Source of the DNA: a virus
Taxonomy: Duplodnaviria; Heunggongvirae; Uroviricota; Caudoviricetes
IMG/VR virus record: IMGVR_UViG_2731957841_000006
Location: 1 to 18,465 of that record
Direction: 5' to 3' (one strand)
DNA: 18,465 nt
The position numbers were made by a program, and so were the translations under genes. Numbering within the stretch: position 1 is the stretch's first letter; the number at the start of each line of letters is the position of its first letter. Positions 4,095 through 14,314 of this stretch are shown here, one piece after another. The notes below the pieces were generated by a model. The model was given only the letters and a program-made list of their open reading frames with translations. It searched no databases and had not been told where the DNA came from.

Positions 4095-4515
4095 GCCCTC
4101 ACCGTCCGGCGATTATTGAGTCAATTACATTTCCATAAATGCCCCCGTAGGGGCGGTTAGTTTCTCCACAAAACAGAGAAGAACACCTGCGGTGGCAGCC
4201 GCCCGGATGGATTGGGTTATGAGCCCGTCGTCCGGTGATGCTCTTCTCTGTTTTGTAAAAAGGACGGTACCAGCCGGAAGCAAGGGTACAAGCTGGTACC
4301 GCCAAGACTACACACAGCATAAAGTTGTGGTGCCGGGTGCCTCCCGGTGCCTGGCGAAGGTTGCACACCAGGCGGGTGGGTATCCACAGAAGGTCGACTG
4401 TCAGCCTCAACCTTAACCCGCGTGCGCTGAGCCGCATTCACCACAACGCTAAGGATTCTCTCTGGTTGAAAATACTTAGCTGTTATGTGCCTGCTTTTAG
4501 CCACATCAGGCGAGG
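4095..4515. other. GC-rich, highly structured non-coding island (candidate structured RNA or element remnant), class unknown
   Basis: About 400 bp much more GC-rich than its flanks; open in several frames on both strands but no translation looks protein-like; nested inverted repeats (e.g. ACAAAACAGAGAAGA ... TCTTCTCTGTTTTGT enclosing ~50 nt; GGTACCAGC ... GCTGGTACC). Confidence 0.3.
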
Positions 4516-4523
4516 TGGACCTA

Positions 4524-4573
4524 GTTATTCCCCAACAACAAGGATTCGGTTAATCTGGTTATCCCCAACAACG
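4524..4573 (+). repeat. Two direct repeats GTTAT(T)CCCCAACAAC about 34 bp apart, just upstream of the 144-aa ORF
   Basis: Seen directly: GTTATTCCCCAACAACA and GTTATCCCCAACAACG; candidate regulator binding sites. Confidence 0.4.
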
Positions 4574-4587
4574 CAAAAGGAAAAGAA

Positions 4588-5022
4588 ATGTCCGGTAATA
4601 TCTATACGCTGTACAAATCCCACTGTGAAAATGTTGGAAAGTATCGGGGCATTGAAATCAGTGGGGTAGTGTCATCAGTCGAAATAAGCAAAGTTGAATC
4701 AAGGGCAACATTACTTACTCTTTTGGACCTTGTCTTACATGAGCACCGGAAGAAATTCGGCACTCCCTATAATCAGTTGAATGGGAAAAAGGCTCTGGTT
4801 CACCTTATTCTGATGAAGCATCACTGGATGCCAAAACAGATTAATGAGATGAAATTTGATGAACTTCTTCTTTCAATTCAGGATGAACTCACACTTGATA
4901 AAATAAGCGTAACCGCCCAGAAATTTTTAGATTATCGAGACTGGAGATCACAAATTCATCACTTTGATGATTTTGACGAAAATGAATGGGATCCTAATTT
5001 GTCTGCACAATATCTAAAGTAA
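4588..5022 (+). CDS. Hypothetical protein, 144 aa (immunity-region moron candidate)
   Basis: 435-nt ORF in AT-rich DNA with AGGA 6 nt upstream of the ATG; no comparable ORF on the opposite strand; no domain recognised by me. Confidence 0.55.
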   Translation: MSGNIYTLYKSHCENVGKYRGIEISGVVSSVEISKVESRATLLTLLDLVLHEHRKKFGTPYNQLNGKKALVHLILMKHHWMPKQINEMKFDELLLSIQDELTLDKISVTAQKFLDYRDWRSQIHHFDDFDENEWDPNLSAQYLK

Positions 5023-5200
5023 CATCCTGTGATAAAACCGTGATTTCCTGATCCAGTTTTTTTAAGGAGTCTATTGTTTCCTGTCGATAAGACAGCACTT
5101 CACGAAGCTGGTTTATAGCTGCCAGCTTCTTTGTCATCCACTCATAAATTTCCTCATCTGTGTAGCCAGGCGCGACGATTTTGGGTTCTGTTTTGTGCAT
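4994..5200 (-). CDS. Hypothetical protein, 68 aa; first gene downstream of the predicted PL promoter
   Basis: ATG at 5200 preceded by GAGGAG at ~7 nt; 3' end overlaps the convergent 144-aa ORF by ~29 nt; not arginine-rich, so not an obvious N homologue. Confidence 0.5.
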   Translation of the reverse strand: MHKTEPKIVAPGYTDEEIYEWMTKKLAAINQLREVLSYRQETIDSLKKLDQEITVLSQDVTLDIVQTN

Positions 5201-5244
5201 TTCACATCTCCTCAAGTTATCAGTTACTTGTTGATGGGGACCAG

Positions 5245-5257
5245 ATTGTTAAAGAGC
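5245..5257 (-). promoter_or_regulatory. boxA-like antitermination element in the PL leader
   Basis: Leftward transcript reads GCUCUUUAACAAU, identical over 13 nt to the rrn boxA core as I recall it; a 5-bp stem-loop (CAAGU...ACUUG) follows before the RBS of the 68-aa gene. Confidence 0.45.
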
Positions 5258-5259
5258 TA

Positions 5260-5283
5260 AGCGTCCTGTAGGGCGCTTTTTTG
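5260..5283 (+). terminator. Candidate intrinsic terminator on the + strand
   Basis: AGCGUCC-UGUA-GGGCGCU stem-loop (one G.U pair) followed by UUUUUUGUUG on the + strand. Confidence 0.4.
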
Positions 5284-5367
5284 TTGCTAACGAATCATCC
5301 TGGACTTCATATGCCCCAGGCGGCTACTTCGTGGGCGTCCTGCCTGTTCGTTGTTTCGCTTGGGTAC

Positions 5368-5395
5368 ATTATGTATCTTAAAGGTACATTGTCAA
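5368..5395 (-). promoter_or_regulatory. PL-like early-left promoter with overlapping operator half-sites
   Basis: On the minus strand: TTGACA, 16-nt spacer, CATAAT; flanked by GGTACA/TGTACC motifs of the same type as the OR palindromes. Confidence 0.5.
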
Positions 5396-5398
5396 GTA

Positions 5399-5422
5399 TA
5401 AAAAAACCTGCCGAAGCAGGTT
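5399..5422 (-). terminator. Intrinsic terminator of the cI transcript
   Basis: Minus-strand RNA ACCUGC-UUCG-GCAGGU followed by UUUUUUUAUA, immediately downstream of the cI stop. Confidence 0.6.
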
Positions 5423-5434
5423 CATAAACATTGA

Positions 5435-6109
5435 TTAGGCTTTGATTTTGTATCTTCTTGGTTTTCCTGAGAAAATCACTGTACCAATTATAGAGCAATT
5501 ACCGTTGATCTTAATGTAAGGCTCAGGCCAGTTTGGGTTTAACGCTTTGAGATAACGCTGTGTCCCATCTTCTATCAACCTTTTGAAGGTGGTTTCACCT
5601 GTATCGTGCATCAATGCAATAACGTCGTCACCGTGGCAGGCAGGTACTTCAGGATCGACAAAAATCATGTCTCCCGGGCGGTACTCATCAATCATTGAAT
5701 CACCTATCACCCGCAAGATATAAGTCATTTCCCCACAGGGTACAGGGCAGGGATACGTTTCTGCTGTGCTCAAATCAACCTCAGAATATCCAACTTCTTT
5801 CCATGCTCCGGCCTGTACCCATGATATGACAGGGACTAATGTGATTTGTTTATTAGTGATTGAAACATCAGGTTTTTTTGTGATGTTCGTTGTCTGGTGT
5901 TCTTGATCGAGCCATCCGACAGGCAGGTCGAAACATTTTTCGATGTGTCGTGCCATGCTGTCACCGATATTTTTAGTAGCACCATCTCCCATAAACCTGC
6001 TGGTCTGGGTTGGCTCGCGATCAATCATAGTGGCAAAGGAAGAATTCCCGCCAACACCATCTCTCAGTTTTCTGGCGTTAGACCGCCGGATGTCATGGAT
6101 TGTTTTCAT
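5435..6109 (-). CDS. cI: CI-like prophage repressor, LexA/S24 peptidase family, 224 aa
   Basis: N-terminal HTH region plus C-terminal S24 autopeptidase signature (GDSM ... K); divergent from the cro-like gene across an operator-rich region; no SD upstream of the ATG (probably leaderless). Confidence 0.88.
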   Translation of the reverse strand: MKTIHDIRRSNARKLRDGVGGNSSFATMIDREPTQTSRFMGDGATKNIGDSMARHIEKCFDLPVGWLDQEHQTTNITKKPDVSITNKQITLVPVISWVQAGAWKEVGYSEVDLSTAETYPCPVPCGEMTYILRVIGDSMIDEYRPGDMIFVDPEVPACHGDDVIALMHDTGETTFKRLIEDGTQRYLKALNPNWPEPYIKINGNCSIIGTVIFSGKPRRYKIKA

Positions 6110-7330: not shown

Positions 7331-7350
7331 AGGTCGGTCATGAGCACTAA
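7171..7350 (+). CDS. Candidate small protein, ~59 aa, in the alternative frame (TTG start)
   Basis: AGGAGG 7 nt upstream of an in-frame TTG; protein-like translation (...[55 protein letters not shown]); its stop overlaps the next gene's start. Confidence 0.3.
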
Positions 7351-8293
7351 ATTAACCGGCTATGTATGGGATGGTTGCGCAGCGTCAGGCATGAAATTAT
7401 CCAGCGTGGCAATTATGGCCCGCCTGGCTGATTTCAGTAATGACGAAGGTGTGTGCTGGCCATCAATTGAAACCATTGCCCGCCAGATTGGCGCGGGGAT
7501 GAGTACCGTCAGAACGGCTATCGCACGGCTGGAAGCAGAAGGCTGGTTAACGCGTAAGGCGCGTCGCCAGGGTAACCGCAATGCGTCGAATGTTTATCAG
7601 CTTAACGTTGCGAAGCTTCAGGCAGCGGCATTTTCTCAACTGTCAGATTCTGACCCGTCAAAATCTGACGTATCAAAATCTGACCCGTCAAAATTTGATG
7701 CGTCGAAATCTGGCAAAAAAGCGGGTTTTCACCCGTCAGAATCTGGCGGGGATCCGTCAGTAAAATCAAAACATGATCCGTCAGATAAAAAACCTTCTCG
7801 TCCGGACGCTTCGCAACCGGACACGCAGACGGCTGAACAGGATTTTTTAACTCGCCATCCTGATGCGGTTGTATTCAGCCCTAAAAAGCGCCAGTGGGGA
7901 ACGCAGGATGATTTGACCTGCGCACAGTGGCTCTGGAAAAAAATCATTGCCCTGTACGAGCAGGCCGCCGAATGTGACGGCGAGGTGGTTCGTCCCAAAG
8001 AACCGAACTGGACAGCATGGGCAAACGAAATTCGCCTGATGTGTGTGCAGGATGGTCGTACTCACAAACAAATCTGCGAGATGTACAGCCGCGTCAGCCG
8101 CGATCCGTTCTGGTGCCGTAACGTGCTCAGCCCGTCGAAGTTGCGGGAAAAATGGGATGAGCTTTCCCTGCGCTTATCGCCGTCCGTCAGCACGCACACA
8201 GAAAAACGTGAAGAGCGGTGCTTACGGAAAAGCAGCAAGCGCGCTGTATCGGGTGATGAATGGTATCTGTCAGGGAATTACGTGGGGGCTTAA
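7340..8293 (+). CDS. Phage replication initiation protein (O-like, N-terminal winged-helix DNA-binding domain), 317 aa
   Basis: AGAGG 6 nt upstream of the ATG; N-terminal HTH-like region; DNA iterons inside the gene as in lambdoid O genes. Confidence 0.75.
7643..7790 (+). repeat. Iteron array (candidate ori) inside the replication gene
   Basis: Five tandem 15-bp units (TCAAAATCTGACCCG-like) at 7643-7717 encoding SDPSK-type peptide repeats, then an A-rich tract and three further CCGTCAG motifs. Confidence 0.6.
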
Positions 8294-8403
8294 TGACGAC
8301 GTTAACTCAGTGTCAGCAGCAGGTGCTGGATATGCTGATTTCTTATCAGAAAGAACGTGGCTTCCCGCCAACCAATCAGGAGGTGGCAACCATGCTGGGA
8401 TAA
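8293..8403 (+). pseudogene. 36-codon remnant of a gene with a LexA-like N-terminal DNA-binding domain, truncated at the deletion junction
   Basis: ATG overlaps the replication-gene stop; [36 protein letters not shown] aligns with the LexA N-terminus (LTARQQEVFDLI...GMPPTRAEIAQRLG) as recalled, then stops where tail-fibre homology begins. Confidence 0.4.
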
Positions 8404-8405
8404 CC

Positions 8406-11051
8406 CATGCGACTGATGCTGCAGGCTCAGCGCGTGCAGCCAGCACGTCAGCCGGACAGGCCGCGACGTCGGCTCAGGAGGCGTCTTCCAGCGCAGGAAC
8501 GGCATCAACAAAGGCCACTGAAGCATCAAAAAGTGCTGCCGCTGCAGAGTCCTCAAAAAGCGCGGCGGCCACCAGTGCCGGTGCGGCGAAAACGTCAGAA
8601 ACGAATGCCGCAGCGTCACAACAATCAGCAGCCACTTCTGCATCCACTGCGACGACGAAAGCGTCAGAAGCCGCCACTTCAGCCCGGGATGCGGCGGCCT
8701 CCAAAGAGGCGGCAAAATCATCAGAAACGAACGCCTCCACAAGCGCCAGCAGTGCAGCCTCCTCGGCAACGGCGGCAGGAAATTCCGTGAAGGCGGCAAA
8801 AACGTCCGAGACGAATGCTAAGTCTTCTGAAACGGCAGCGGAACAGAGCGCCTCAGCTGCGGCAGACTCTGAGACAGCAGCTGCATCATCGGCCCGTGAG
8901 GCGTCCATTAAGGCAGAGGAGGCAGCAGTCAGTGCCACCGCCGCCGGAAAATCGGCAGAAAGCGCCGCATCATCCGCTTCAACAGCCACAACGAAGGCTG
9001 GCGAAGCCACTGAACAGGCCAGCGCAGCAGCGAGGTCTGCTTCCGCAGCGAAGACATCCGAAACGAACGCGAAAGCGTCGGAAACCAGCGCAGAATCCTC
9101 AAAAACGGCTGCCGCATCGTCCGCCAGTTCGGCGGCGTCATCGGCATCATCGGCGTCTGCTTCAAAAGATGAGGCGACCAGACAGGCGTCAGCAGCGAGG
9201 GGCAGCGCCACGACGGCATCCACGAAGGCGACAGAGGCTGCTGGCAGTGCGGCAGCGGCAGCACAGAGCAAAAGTACGGCAGAATCCGCAGCAACGCGCG
9301 CCGAGACAGCAGCAAAACGGGCAGAGGATATTGCATCCGCCGTGGCGCTTGAGGATGCGAGCACGACGAAAAAGGGGATAGTACAGCTCAGTAGTGCGAC
9401 CAACAGCACTTCCGAGTCACTGGCGGCAACACCAAAAGCCGTTAAGGCCGCGTATGACCTGGCTAACGGGAAATACACCGCACAGGATGCAACGACAGCA
9501 CAGAAAGGGATAATCCAGCTAAGCAGCGCGACCAACAGCACGTCTGAAACGCTTGCCGCGACACCAAAGGCAGTAAAAGCAGCCAATGACAATGCTGAGA
9601 AACGTCTGCAGAAAGATCAGAACGGTGCGGATATCCCTGGCAAAGATACCTTTACGAAAAATATTGGTGCCTGCCGTGCCTTCGGTGGGTCAGTAAGCAC
9701 AACAACAGGAAACTGGACGACTGCACAGTTTATCGAGTGGCTGGATTCTCAGGGAGCATTTAACCATCCATACTGGATGTGCAAGGGTTCCTGGTCTTAT
9801 GGCAATAATAAAATCATTACTGATACTGACTGCGGTAATATTCATCTCGCCGGAGCTGTCATTGAAGTAATGGGGATAAAGTCAGCGATGACGATCCGCA
9901 TTACCACACCGACCACCTCCACTGGTGGTGGAACAACTAACGCCCAGTTTACCTATATTAATCACGGAACAGATTATTCACCTGGCTGGCGAAGGGACTA
10001 TAACTCCAGAAATAAGCCAACGGCATCAGAGATCGGGGCGTTACCGTCAGGTGGAACAGCAGTATCATCAGTTAATCTGGCTTCAAAAGGTCGGGTAACC
10101 GCGCTGACAGACAATACGCAGGGGGCAGCAGGTCTTGAGTTATACGAGGTGTATAACAACGGATATCCAACAGCGTATGGAAATATCATTCACCTGAAAG
10201 GGATGACAGCCGTTGGCGAAGGTGAGTTACTCATCGGCTGGAGTGGTACAAGCGGTGCTCATGCTCCGGCATTTATTCGTTCACGACGGGATACGACCGA
10301 CGCAAACTGGTCGCCGTGGGCGCAGCTTTACACCTCGGCTCATCCTCCTGCAGAGTTTTATCCAGTCGGTGCACCAATCCCGTGGCCATCAGATACCGTT
10401 CCGTCTGGCTATGCCCTGATGCAGGGGCAGACTTTTGACAAATCTGCATACCCGAAACTTGCAGTTGCTTATCCGTCAGGCGTGATCCCTGATATGCGTG
10501 GCTGGACGATTAAGGGCAAGCCCGCCAGTGGTCGGGCCGTATTATCTCAGGAACAGGACGGCATTAAATCGCACACCCACAGCGCCAGCGCATCCAGTAC
10601 GGATTTGGGGACGAAAACCACATCGTCGTTTGATTACGGAACCAAATCCACGAATAACACCGGGGCGCATACCCATAGTATTAGCGGGACCGCAAATAGT
10701 GCCGGTGCGCACCAACACAAGAGTTCCGGTGCATTTGGTGGCACGAACACGAGCATTTTCCCTAATGGTTATACCGCGATTTCAAATCTAAGCGCGGGGA
10801 TTATGAGCACAACAAGCGGTAGTGGCCAGACTCGTAATGCAGGGAAGACATCATCAGATGGTGCTCATACCCACTCGCTGTCCGGCACTGCTGCAAGCGC
10901 AGGCGCACATGCACATACTGTCGGTATTGGTGCTCATACGCACTCCGTTGCGATTGGTTCACATGGACACACCATCACCGTTAACGCTGCTGGTAACGCG
11001 GAAAACACCGTCAAAAACATCGCATTTAACTATATTGTGAGGCTTGCATAA
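8406..11051 (+). pseudogene. stf: Side tail fibre protein (Stf-like), 5'-truncated; lacks the N-terminal tail-attachment region and its own start codon
   Basis: Ala/Ser/Thr-rich repeat region, two copies of the tail-fibre repeat KGI(V/I)[11 protein letters not shown](S/T)[11 protein letters not shown], and His-rich GAHTHS-type C-terminal motifs; similarity to Rac StfR (from memory) begins mid-protein; the ORF's upstream 120 codons overlap the replication gene in another frame. Confidence 0.7.
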
Positions 11052-11635
11052 TGGCATTCAGAATGAGTGAACAACCACGGACCATAAAAATTTATAATCT
11101 GCTGGCCGGAACTAATGAATTTATTGGTGAAGGTGATGCATATATTCCGCCTCATACAGGTCTGCCAGCAAACAGTACCGATATTGCACCGCCAGATATT
11201 CCGGCTGGCTTCGTGGCTGTTTTCAACAGTGATGAGTCATCGTGGCATCTCGTTGAAGATCATCGGGGTAAAACGGTTTATGACGTGGCTTCCGGCGACG
11301 CGTTATTTATTTCTGAACTCGGTCCGTTACCGGAAAATGTTACCTGGTTATCGCCGGAAGGGGAGTTTCAGAAGTGGAACGGCACAGCCTGGGTGAAGGA
11401 TACGGAAGCAGAAAAACTGTTCCGGATCCGGGAGGCGGAAGAAACAAAAAACAACCTGATGCAGGTAGCCAGTGAGCATATTGCGCCGCTTCAGGATGCT
11501 GCAGATCTGGAAATTGCAACGGAGGAAGAAACCTCGTTGCTGGAAGCCTGGAAGAAGTATCGGGTGTTGCTGAACCGTGTTGATACATCAACTGCACCTG
11601 ATATTGAGTGGCCAGAAGAACCAGACACCGTGTAA
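11051..11635 (+). CDS. tfa: Tail fibre assembly protein (Tfa), 194 aa
   Basis: Start overlaps the stf stop (TAATG); typical Tfa size, position and sequence character. Confidence 0.85.
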
Positions 11636-11751: not shown

Positions 11752-12573
<822 letters not shown>

Positions 12574-12880
12574 CTAATCCTTTGAATTCACATAGTATAA
12601 AAAAGATACTTTTCCTCATAATGTGAGCTAATTTTATGTTTCGTTTGATGATTGGACCGGTCTCGAAAACCGTAGGCACGTAGTATGCGTTAATTTATGA
12701 ACAAACTACTTGTCTGCTGTTTTTCTGTCATTAGTCGTATATAGAATGATTCTCTATGCCTAACAAAGCATCACCAGTGCTAGATTACGTTGTAGTCACT
12801 GTTTAAATATCCAGATAAAATATTTCCTTCTGGGTTGAATGAGTGATAGAGTTTCACCCATTAGACCCGTTGGAGGAATT

Positions 12881-14314
12881 ATGTCTGAATTTGAAGTGTT
12901 GGCACAGCATCTGCTGAAGGAAGCCGAGGCGGAAGAAAAGCTGCGACAGGAAAATGATAAAAAGCTTATCGAGAAAGTGCTGGAAATCTATGATCAGAAG
13001 TATGTAGCTGAATTACTGAGAAAAGTCGGAAAAAATGAGTGGAGCCGTGAAACCATTAACCGCTGGATTAATGGCAAGTGTTTACCAAAATCGTTGACTT
13101 CAGTAGAAGAGTCTCTTCTGCGTAAGATGCTACCAGAACCACCTGCAAACCATCCGGAATATGCTTTCCGCTTCATTGACTTATTTGCTGGAATTGGAGG
13201 GATACGGAAAGGTTTTGAGGCCATTGGAGGCCAGTGTGTTTTTACCAGTGAATGGAATAAAGATGCTGTGCGTACATACAAGGCCAACTGGTTTAACGAT
13301 GAACAGGTGCATAAATTCAATCTCGATATTCGGGAAGTCACGCTGAGTGATAAAACCGATGTATTGGAAACGGATGCTTATGCATATATTGATGAGCATG
13401 TGCCGGATCATGATGTGCTTCTTGCGGGGTTCCCGTGCCAGCCATTTAGCCTTGCTGGTGTTAGTAAGAAAAACTCACTTGGTCGTGCGCATGGTTTTGA
13501 ATGTGAAGCACAAGGAACACTTTTTTTTGACGTGGCACGTATTATACGAGCAAAAAAACCGGCAATTTTTGTGCTGGAAAATGTCAAAAATCTGAAGAGC
13601 CATGATAAGGGTAAAACTTTCAAAGTCATTATGGAGACCCTTGACGAGCTGGGCTACGAAGTTGCCGATGCTGCAGAAATGGGAAAAAACGATCCAAAGA
13701 TTATCGATGGGAAGCATTTTTTGCCTCAGCATCGTGAACGCATTGTTCTGGTCGGATTTAGACGAGATCTGAATATTCACAAGGGGTTTACCTTGCGTGA
13801 TATCAGTCGTTTTTATCCGGAACACCGCCCATCATTTGGTGAATTGCTGGAGCCTGTAGTCGACAGTAAATATATACTTACGCCAAAACTATGGGAGTAC
13901 CTTTATAACTACGCCAAAAAGCATGCAGCCAAGGGGAATGGTTTTGGCTTTGGGTTGGTCAATCCTGAGAATAAGGAAAGCATTGCACGCACACTTTCTG
14001 CCAGATATCACAAAGACGGATCAGAAATTCTTATTGATCGTGGTTGGGATATGGCAACGGGAGAGGCTGACTTTATGAATGAGAGTAACCAGGCTCGTCG
14101 ACCACGCAGGCTGACTCCCCGAGAGTGCGCACGCCTTATGGGGTTTGAAAAACCTGGAGGGAAACCATTCCGTATTCCGGTTTCAGATACTCAGTCATAT
14201 CGGCAGTTCGGTAACTCCGTTGTGGTGCCAGTATTTGAAGCCGTTGCCAGACTTCTGGAACCCTATATCCTCAAAGCTGTTTCTGCTGATGCTGGTAAGA
14301 CTGGGCAGCCTTGA
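12881..14314 (+). CDS. DNA (cytosine-5) methyltransferase, Dcm/M.EcoRII-like (predicted CCWGG), with N-terminal HTH-like extension
   Basis: m5C-MTase motifs: [15 protein letters not shown] (motif I), GFPCQPFS (motif IV), ENV (motif VI), QFGNSV; GGAGG upstream of the ATG at 12881; N-terminus MSEFEVLAQ resembles M.EcoRII as recalled. Confidence 0.88.

Follow-up and report, generated by a model that had tools for sequence, protein, structure and literature searches.

What might two small genes, facing each other and overlapping at their 3' ends beside a repressor gene, do for the prophage that carries them? This question is raised by positions 4588-5200 of the IMG/VR virus record IMGVR_UViG_2731957841_000006, of which the whole 18,465-nucleotide (nt) stretch (hereafter, the window) was analysed. 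The window runs from proA through a tRNA-Thr gene (1369-1441) into an integrated prophage resembling SfV, SfIV, e14 and CPS-53. An earlier note, made from the letters alone, had described here a convergent pair of genes encoding 144 and 68 amino acids (aa) and had suggested a toxin-antitoxin or an antisense-regulated exclusion module. We found that the 144-aa protein belongs to the ECs1072 family and the 68-aa protein to the family of YdfC, and that such a pair is a conserved two-gene unit across enterobacterial prophages, with a one-sided dependence between its halves. The pair lies as follows, according to the list of open reading frames (ORFs) with their translations.

4588-5022, plus strand: 144-aa gene, ATG start, TAA stop at 5020-5022
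4994-5200, minus strand: 68-aa gene, ATG start at 5200, TAG stop at 4994-4996
4994-5022: 3' overlap of the two coding regions, 29 nt, from the ORF coordinates
5057-5063: T7/A7 homopolymer within the 68-aa gene, length variants of which give an 80-aa frameshifted form with an altered C-terminus

The overlap of about 29 bp given in the earlier note was thus exact, and the good ribosome-binding sites it mentioned could be read from the sequence as AAGGA, 6 nt ahead of the ATG at 4588, and GAGGAG, 7 nt ahead of the ATG at 5200 on the minus strand. The minus-strand ORF as listed (4994-5215) encodes 73 aa from a TTG, and the internal ATG at 5200 gives the 68-aa form. Both ORFs are genuine genes and not chance ORFs, because they have homologues across genera and confident structure models, are preceded by strong ribosome-binding sites and overlap recurrently, and because the ratio of non-synonymous to synonymous change (pN/pS) is 0.33 for the 144-aa gene against its 72%-identical Escherichia albertii homologue. 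The latter value shows purifying selection on the 144-aa gene. The homopolymer is T8 in E. albertii, and the 80-aa form occurs in several database clusters (variant proteins P0047 and P0052); the site may be prone to slippage or may reflect mutation or sequencing error.

The two proteins and their families

The earlier note had recognised neither protein, and both could now be assigned. With 157.8 bits (cut-off 70), the 144-aa protein falls into NCBIfam NF033230, "ECs1072 family phage-associated protein", and it covers the profile from end to end, residues 4-144 aligning to positions 2-142. Sakai ECs_5703, which gave the family its name, and a Yersinia homologue also passed this cut-off. The protein further matched phrog_5286 (E 1.5e-90) and carries the ECs1072 family label of RefSeq in hundreds of genomes. 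Only 76 relatives were recovered by an exhaustive HMMER search of 1.84 billion cluster representatives; nearly all of them are single-domain proteins of 145-155 aa, and the named sources are Enterobacterales. AlphaFold2, with an alignment of 47 sequences, modelled the protein as all-alpha with eight helices (predicted local distance difference test score, pLDDT, 94.7; predicted template modelling score, pTM, 0.89). The conserved positions are L50, R54, L64, G66, A69, H72 and an invariant W134 in an acidic 'EWDP' motif at the C-terminus.

The 68-aa protein was 41% identical to YdfC of E. coli K-12 (b1573) over 66 residues (BLASTP, E 9e-18), 34% identical to a non-overlapping homologue in Proteus, and matched phrog_1744 over residues 1-68 (E 6e-35). 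There is no curated Pfam or NCBIfam model for YdfC. The N-terminus bears the motif EPxIxxP..T.EE..EWM in a disordered segment followed by a single long helix; in the AlphaFold model (pLDDT 86) the first 14 residues, with the family motif, are flexible and residues 15-67 form a continuous helix. YdfC is known in the literature as the third small protein of the dicBF operon of the Qin prophage and is described only as a small protein of unknown function, the toxicity of the operon being attributed to DicF and DicB.

Both proteins are predicted to be soluble. The 144-aa protein has an isoelectric point (pI) of 6.4, a negative grand average of hydropathy (GRAVY) and a maximal Kyte-Doolittle mean over 19 residues of 0.84; the corresponding values for the acidic 68-aa protein are a pI of 4.8, a negative GRAVY and 0.29.

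The check proposed in the earlier note, by homology search and structure prediction, gave homologues for both proteins and a confident model for the larger one, but no match that reveals a function. Neither protein matched a Pfam family or any family of PADLOC-DB v2 at E ≤ 1, and their PHROG matches carry only 'unknown function' labels. The 144-aa model had no Foldseek match below E = 1 in the PDB or BFVD, and profile searches of PDB sequences found no relative for either protein. An HD-domain or HEPN nuclease, to which weak fold-search neighbours pointed, was rejected since the catalytic H...HD...D and Rx4-6H motifs are absent. No DNA-binding or known regulatory domain was found in the 144-aa protein with the Pfam and fold searches, and neither protein is listed in the DefensePredictor supplements. 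Literature searches by name, accession, PHROG identifier and family identifier returned a single microarray table that mentions ECs1072; no function, structure or partner gene is described in the searched literature for this family, which is classed as a 'hypothetical equivalog'.

Linkage across enterobacterial prophages

We determined how often the genes occur and whether they occur together. The 144-aa gene was present in 421 of the 5426 complete E. coli genomes and the 68-aa gene in 424, the latter counted with a query (5056-5255) that covers the 5' two-thirds of the gene and the region upstream of it. Among the informative IMG/VR loci all 88 (79 of the window type and 9 of a Yersinia type) had a convergent overlapping partner, many of these loci being near-identical, so that the independent lineages with the pair number about a dozen. 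The sole IMG/VR locus without a partner is a contig that ends at the ECs1072 gene. Only 39 of 80 window-type loci share the PL leader, repressor and cro of the window, so that two or more immunity types accompany the cassette, as exemplified by phage vB_EcoS-569R4. A pair 98% identical to that of the window is present in SfIV, a functional Shigella phage whose depositor left the 68-aa ORF unannotated.

More distant ECs1072 homologues (22-72% identity) were found in E. albertii, Serratia, several Yersinia, Pectobacterium, Proteus, Morganella, a P2-like Pantoea prophage and the locus L009, and the Sp4 prophage of O157 Sakai also has an ECs1072 homologue with a convergent overlapping ORF. Every homologue examined sits on the strand opposite to the early lytic operon. 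From the listing of minus-strand ORFs, a convergent ORF overlaps the 3' end of the ECs1072 homologue at all of these loci except L009, to the following extents.

This window: 29 nt
Pantoea: 62 nt
E. albertii: 64 nt
Serratia: 74 nt
Yersinia and Pectobacterium: 194 nt
Morganella: 224 nt
Proteus: 227 nt
Sakai Sp4: 317 nt, between ECs_5703 and an unannotated 169-aa YdfC-like ORF at L022 19168-19677, plus strand (the PR strand)

In Sakai Sp4 the module is placed inside the PR operon, flanked by ECs_1071 (cII-like) and ECs_1073 (replication), and ECs_5703 is antisense to PR.

The partner ORFs all carry an N-terminal (E)PxI(Y/F)...L...EL..WL, followed by a helix. An iterative profile search of 3166 six-frame ORF segments, seeded with the window and Proteus proteins only, recovered exactly the partner ORFs as new matches (E 5e-5 to 9e-4, with noise at E ≥ 0.08). 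In a search over 4804 such segments the resulting partner profile, a hidden Markov model, in turn found K-12 YdfC (E 3e-12). By these similarities the partner ORFs, the 68-aa protein and K-12 YdfC are one family. The overlap never includes the conserved core of the partner, and the conservation of this core is therefore not an antisense artefact. In nine of nine contexts the start-to-start distance of the two genes is a multiple of three, that is, they keep the same relative reading phase. Such constancy would follow if no spacer had come between the two coding regions from their common ancestor onward.

The two genes are inherited together as one unit, and no description of an association between ECs1072 and YdfC-like genes was found in the literature available to us. 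In prophages of Proteus and Morganella there are two tandem YdfC-like genes (short copies at L016 4849-5070 and L019 5139-5282, both on the minus strand). The short copy does not overlap and is near the 68-aa protein of the window in sequence, and a diverged copy of 196-197 aa overlaps the ECs1072 homologue, which suggests duplication and specialisation of the partner.

Signals around the cassette

The following features frame the pair, and they were used to predict its transcription.

5435-6109, minus strand: LexA-family (YmfK-like) repressor gene
5404-5423: repressor terminator
5368-5395, minus strand: PL-like promoter, TTGACA-16-CATAAT, 11 of 12 matches, flanked by repeated GGTACATT operator-like sequences
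5285-5358, minus strand: structured leader RNA of the PL transcript, about 70 nt, CGAACAGGCAGGACGCC...GGATGATTCG, conserved in E. coli, Yersinia and Pectobacterium
5259-5285, plus strand: intrinsic terminator for the transcript of the 144-aa gene, beyond the whole 68-aa gene
5227-5247, minus strand: inverted copy of the direct repeats, in the 5' untranslated region of the 68-aa gene (93% over 14 nt, 75% over 20 nt)
5104-5129, plus strand: stable hairpin within the 68-aa gene, -15.6 kcal/mol, z -4.65, weak U-tract
4524-4539 and 4558-4572, plus strand: GTTAT(T)CCCCAACAAC, a pair of direct repeats on the 5' side of the 144-aa gene
4486-4518, plus strand: element resembling a promoter, or hairpin, TGTGCCTG...CCACNTCAGGCGNGGTGG, conserved ahead of the plus-strand cargo gene in a nine-phage alignment

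The earlier note had placed both genes between cI and the early-left operon. Their position beside the repressor held, but the 68-aa gene is itself the first gene of the early-left operon, because the repressor, its terminator and PL all precede it. It is the first ORF after the PL-like promoter here, and has an equal position in vB_EcoS-569R4. The PL-like promoter sequence is identical in e14, where the repressor and PL flanks are also nearly identical, and ymfJ, the first PL gene of e14, has been reported to be induced late in the SOS response, with its protein detected. For these reasons we consider the 68-aa gene a derepression-induced early gene. With PL on the minus strand, the 144-aa gene runs antisense to the PL transcript as the earlier note had stated, and by the gene order this transcript can reach yfdP/yfdR, xis and int only by passing through the 144-aa gene in antisense.

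The genes converge with neither a terminator nor a spacer between them. The terminator at 5259-5285 has a strand-specific form, with -11.5 kcal/mol and a U-run on the plus strand and -7.5 kcal/mol and no U-run on the minus strand. Because it is located past the 68-aa gene, each of the two transcripts should be antisense to the other; this layout forces an antisense overlap of the transcripts, in line with the antisense regulation proposed in the earlier note. The 68-aa gene, ribosome-binding site included, should be covered over its full length by the plus-strand transcript, unless that transcript already stops at the hairpin at 5104-5129, which is possible. We infer that the genes are expressed in opposite states, with mutual antisense or transcriptional interference. 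As to expression, a microarray table lists ECs1072 among the transcripts that change at the growth transition of uninduced O157 Sakai.

The leader of the PL transcript has a consensus fold of two helices with compensatory changes in four pairs, and may act in cis as an RNA, perhaps in put-like antitermination. In this group of phages, sites that resemble terminators follow the first PL gene, which here encodes an acidic protein and not an arginine-rich, N-like one. Rfam has no family for the leader or for the repeats.

The pair occupies a slot in which the cargo varies between shared flanks. The universal flanks stop near 4519 on the left and resume near 5289 on the right; between them SfV carries orf33, e14 carries ymfI/ymfJ and PhiR29_1 carries one plus-strand gene. 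The window, E. albertii and PhiR29_1 share extra blocks at 4520-4575, with the direct repeats, and at 5244-5288, with the terminator; in PhiR29_1 the repeats precede, and the terminator follows, the different cargo gene. The GC content of the gene-pair cassette is 39%, compared with 47.5% for the window. Low GC content and a transcription unit with its own terminator are the classic signature of an acquired accessory gene ('moron'), and the accessory slot suspected in the earlier note was thereby borne out. The alternative cargo (SfV orf33, e14 YmfI and YmfJ, the 166-aa protein of PhiR29_1 and the 102- and 111-aa proteins of PhiR42_1) had no Pfam or PADLOC match, so the slot is not supported as a defence hotspot.

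Two copies of a CA-rich repeat, AATCTGGTTATCCCCAACAAC, precede the 144-aa gene and an inverted third copy precedes the 68-aa gene, so that inverted repeats bracket the cassette. PhiR29_1, with its different cargo, has matching bracket repeats with co-varying bases. A shared operator, an RNA element and a recombination site are candidates for these repeats. Further upstream, an element of about 45 nt, TGTGCCTG-N-TT(C/T)NCCACCTCAGGCGGNGGTGGTAT(C)TT, is conserved across genera whatever the cargo and contains a CCACC/GGTGG inverted repeat; it was found at 4486-4518 of the window and in the loci L003, L004, L006, L012, L014, L016, L020 and L021. In relatives the upstream element reads TGTGCCTG-N-TTCTCCACCTCAGGCGGNGGTGGTATCTT, with an extended -10 (TTCTCC-17-TGgTATCTT).

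Left of the cassette, the yfdP/yfdQ region (4099-4437) is degraded, with yfdQ missing in comparison to SfIV. A stretch of the conserved left flank on the strand of the PL transcript (4326-4445, minus) had a sub-threshold Rfam match to STnc100, a Salmonella small RNA (35.6 bits against a gathering score of 47, E 8e-6); RefSeq annotates the stretch as a frameshifted hypothetical gene. The prophage itself is a deletion remnant in which a truncated replication gene (about 7340-8400) is joined to a tail-fibre gene (a 1002-aa ORF, 8043-11051); this junction is absent from every complete E. coli genome in the collection. An Rfam match to IS009 (RF02111, 225.9 bits) was found at 11394-11592 on the plus strand, inside the region of the tail-fibre assembly gene, and for about 11752-14314 other E. 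coli genomes annotate genes for a GIY-YIG (LEM-3-like) protein and a DNA cytosine methyltransferase.

Possible roles of the pair and its likeness to known systems

The explanation we favour, tentatively and at less than even confidence, is that the 144-aa protein is an accessory or exclusion protein expressed in the lysogen, with the 68-aa protein as its lytic-phase antagonist and with antisense shut-off between the two genes. The pair would then be a portable two-gene prophage accessory module, the halves of which are expressed in opposite states of the life cycle. In the lysogen, transcription of the ECs1072-family gene would start within the region upstream of it and run up to the strand-specific terminator past its partner; this lysogenic expression of the window's copy is something that we infer. 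The YdfC-family gene would be made only after derepression, being the first behind the repressor-controlled PL. Strong transcription from PL would silence the 144-aa gene, and the plus-strand transcript of the lysogen would mask leaky mRNA of the 68-aa gene, following the logic of an excludon. The soluble, all-alpha 144-aa protein would serve a function in the lysogenic phase, most likely interference with superinfecting phages, and the single-helix YdfC-like protein would antagonise it at the lytic onset of the prophage, which would give cognate self-immunity. Both the antagonism at the protein level and the anti-phage role are conjectured. The explanation draws on the strict linkage and deep conservation of the pair, its constant orientation against the early operon, the asymmetric plus-strand terminator, the low GC content, the solubility of both proteins, the SOS induction of ymfJ in e14, the excludons called in K-12 and the microarray listing, and it has precedents in BstA/aba and TerI/anti-TerI, where prophage defence comes with cognate self-immunity. 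An antisense-regulated exclusion module, as suggested in the earlier note, is a plausible description on this analysis. We are somewhat more doubtful about the fuller claim that the pair is a new and widespread prophage immunity module, in which the ECs1072 protein blocks superinfection, the YdfC-family protein switches it off and mutual antisense transcription reinforces the switch.

Several observations weigh against the favoured explanation. The window keeps the -35 half of the conserved upstream element at 4486-4518, but the -10 is replaced at the cassette junction, and neither a standard nor a relaxed scan found a sigma-70 promoter on the plus strand upstream of the 144-aa gene. In E. albertii the C-terminus of the partner is frameshifted by the T8 run while the ECs1072 gene is intact, and the ECs1072 homologue L009 has no partner. 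YdfC-like genes without an ECs1072-like ORF occur in Qin, in PPompW phages and in PhiR42_1 with the same N-terminal motif; the partner therefore serves some purpose by itself and is not necessarily a dedicated antidote. Neither protein has homology to a known defence, exclusion or toxin protein in Pfam, PADLOC, PHROG functions or PDB sequences and folds, and the sole expression datum is the one microarray listing, which concerns a distant homologue.

The same one-sided dependence could be read with the polarity reversed. The YdfC-like early protein would then be the active and possibly harmful one, acting in host takeover or against the host, and the ECs1072 protein together with the antisense transcript would neutralise its leaky expression from PL. 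YdfC is the commoner of the two and often stands alone in lambdoid prophages, and ECs1072 is almost never found without a YdfC-like gene, as expected if ECs1072 depends on YdfC; the plus-strand transcript should moreover cover the entire 68-aa gene with its ribosome-binding site. However, most prophages that carry YdfC lack ECs1072, which argues against a general need for an antidote. Small acidic proteins are more typical of inhibitors than of toxins, and the 68-aa protein with its pI of 4.8 looks more like the former. The literature also places the toxicity of dicBF on DicF and DicB and not on YdfA-C. On balance we regard reversed polarity as unlikely.

Alternatively, the proteins may not be coupled at all. 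The ECs1072 gene would then be an independent accessory gene that originated or inserted at the 3' end of a ydfC-like gene and was kept there by descent, with an interaction only in cis, by transcriptional interference and antisense RNA, or with none. The slot after the first PL gene is an accessory hotspot with unrelated opposite-strand cargo in e14 (ymfI), PhiR29_1 and PhiR42_1, and the overlapped tail of the partner, which varies from 29 to 317 nt, looks like incidental read-through. E. albertii pairs a 72%-identical ECs1072 protein with a near-identical partner core, with no obvious co-variation. Such independence is difficult to reconcile with a linkage that is kept in three operon contexts (PL, PR between cII and O in Sp4, and the early operon of a P2-like prophage) and despite exchange of the immunity region, which in mosaic phages is hard to explain without selection. 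We judge independence to be just as unlikely as reversed polarity.

A role of the ECs1072 protein in regulating lysis-lysogeny or induction, through repressor cleavage, PL activity or early gene expression, appears improbable. The gene is invariably beside the immunity region and antisense to the early operon, and phage switches often use convergent transcription, as in pR/pL of coliphage 186 and in PRE/cro, paQ and oop of lambda. Yet the Pfam and fold searches gave no regulatory domain, the switch works without the 144-aa gene in SfV, e14 and PhiR29_1, which have the same repressor, and the gene rides with different repressors. That one or both ORFs are spurious or overlap by chance is very improbable: annotation or gene calling has missed the 68-aa ORF of SfIV and the partner ORFs of Sakai and several other genomes, but both proteins, which the earlier note had allowed might prove to have no homologues, are conserved across genera, with purifying selection on the 144-aa gene, confident models and strong ribosome-binding sites, and the overlap was absent from only one of the lineages examined.

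About 8% of complete E. coli genomes carry the exact cassette, and its relatives extend across prophages of Enterobacterales, including Sakai Sp4 and the functional SfIV. Both families are named and uncharacterised; YdfC sits in the much-studied dicBF operon of K-12. The near-constant convergent overlap, on strands that belong to opposite states of the life cycle, leads to a two-component hypothesis that is testable by genetics in SfIV or K-12. If defence with self-immunity is the true explanation, the pair would add a new system and a new fold to the repertoire of prophage immunity and would give a first function to two uncharacterised families, one of them with a K-12 gene; if the reverse polarity is true, it would reveal the role of YdfC-like early proteins. 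At present the pair is a well-defined lead and not a demonstrated system, and it resembles known kinds of prophage accessory modules and excludons.

Among known systems several could be set aside. Type I toxin-antitoxin loci such as txpA/RatA and bsrG/SR4 have a convergent 3' overlap, but here both strands encode conserved proteins and there is no small hydrophobic toxin, so this type was ruled out. A type II system was rejected as well, the genes being convergent and not co-directional and lacking any toxin or antitoxin Pfam domain or significant fold match. The toxin-antitoxin module proposed in the earlier note has in this way neither the homology nor the architecture, and a classical one is unlikely because the 68-aa gene stands behind a repressed PL in the lysogen and the 144-aa gene is tolerated in hundreds of genomes. 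RexAB and the other catalogued defence systems were discarded with the empty PADLOC-DB v2 search.

In the logic of position and orientation the pair resembles sieB of lambda, P22 and Rac, which is convergent with the first PL genes; in Rac, sieB-ydaF has been called a convergent excludon. In the Yersinia locus L005 a SieB-family gene is co-directional with, and adjoins, the ECs1072 homologue. SieB, however, resides in the membrane, and the 144-aa protein lacks any hydrophobic segment; neither protein matched PF14163 (Pfam, E ≤ 1). A SieB-like membrane protein was ruled out, neither protein being hydrophobic. With YdfC of Qin the 68-aa protein shares the motif EPxIxAPxYTDxExYEWM and a place in a repressor-controlled early operon. 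In Qin, however, ydfC is preceded by ydfA and ydfB, a terminator and dicF come next, and the opposite strand has no ECs1072-like gene there.

The pair ymfI/ymfJ of e14 (L021 5498-6085) occupies the same slot between the same flanks, with ymfI on the plus and ymfJ on the minus strand, a 63-nt 3' overlap and ymfJ first after PL. Both of its proteins are unrelated in sequence to those of the window, and several unrelated cassettes therefore share the face-to-face overlapping layout. Conceptually, BstA/aba and TerI/anti-TerI are similar in that a lysogen-expressed gene beside the repressor is linked to a self-sparing element. They have no homology to the pair, however, and the self-immunity element of BstA is DNA and not a protein. 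K-12 RNA-seq has led ymfI-ymfJ and sieB-ydaF to be called convergent excludons. The pair of the window shares with excludons its convergent units, overlapping transcripts (here predicted from sequence) and a mutually exclusive expression that would follow from them: the genes converge, their coding regions overlap by 29 nt, and the plus-strand terminator at 5259-5285 lies past the partner.

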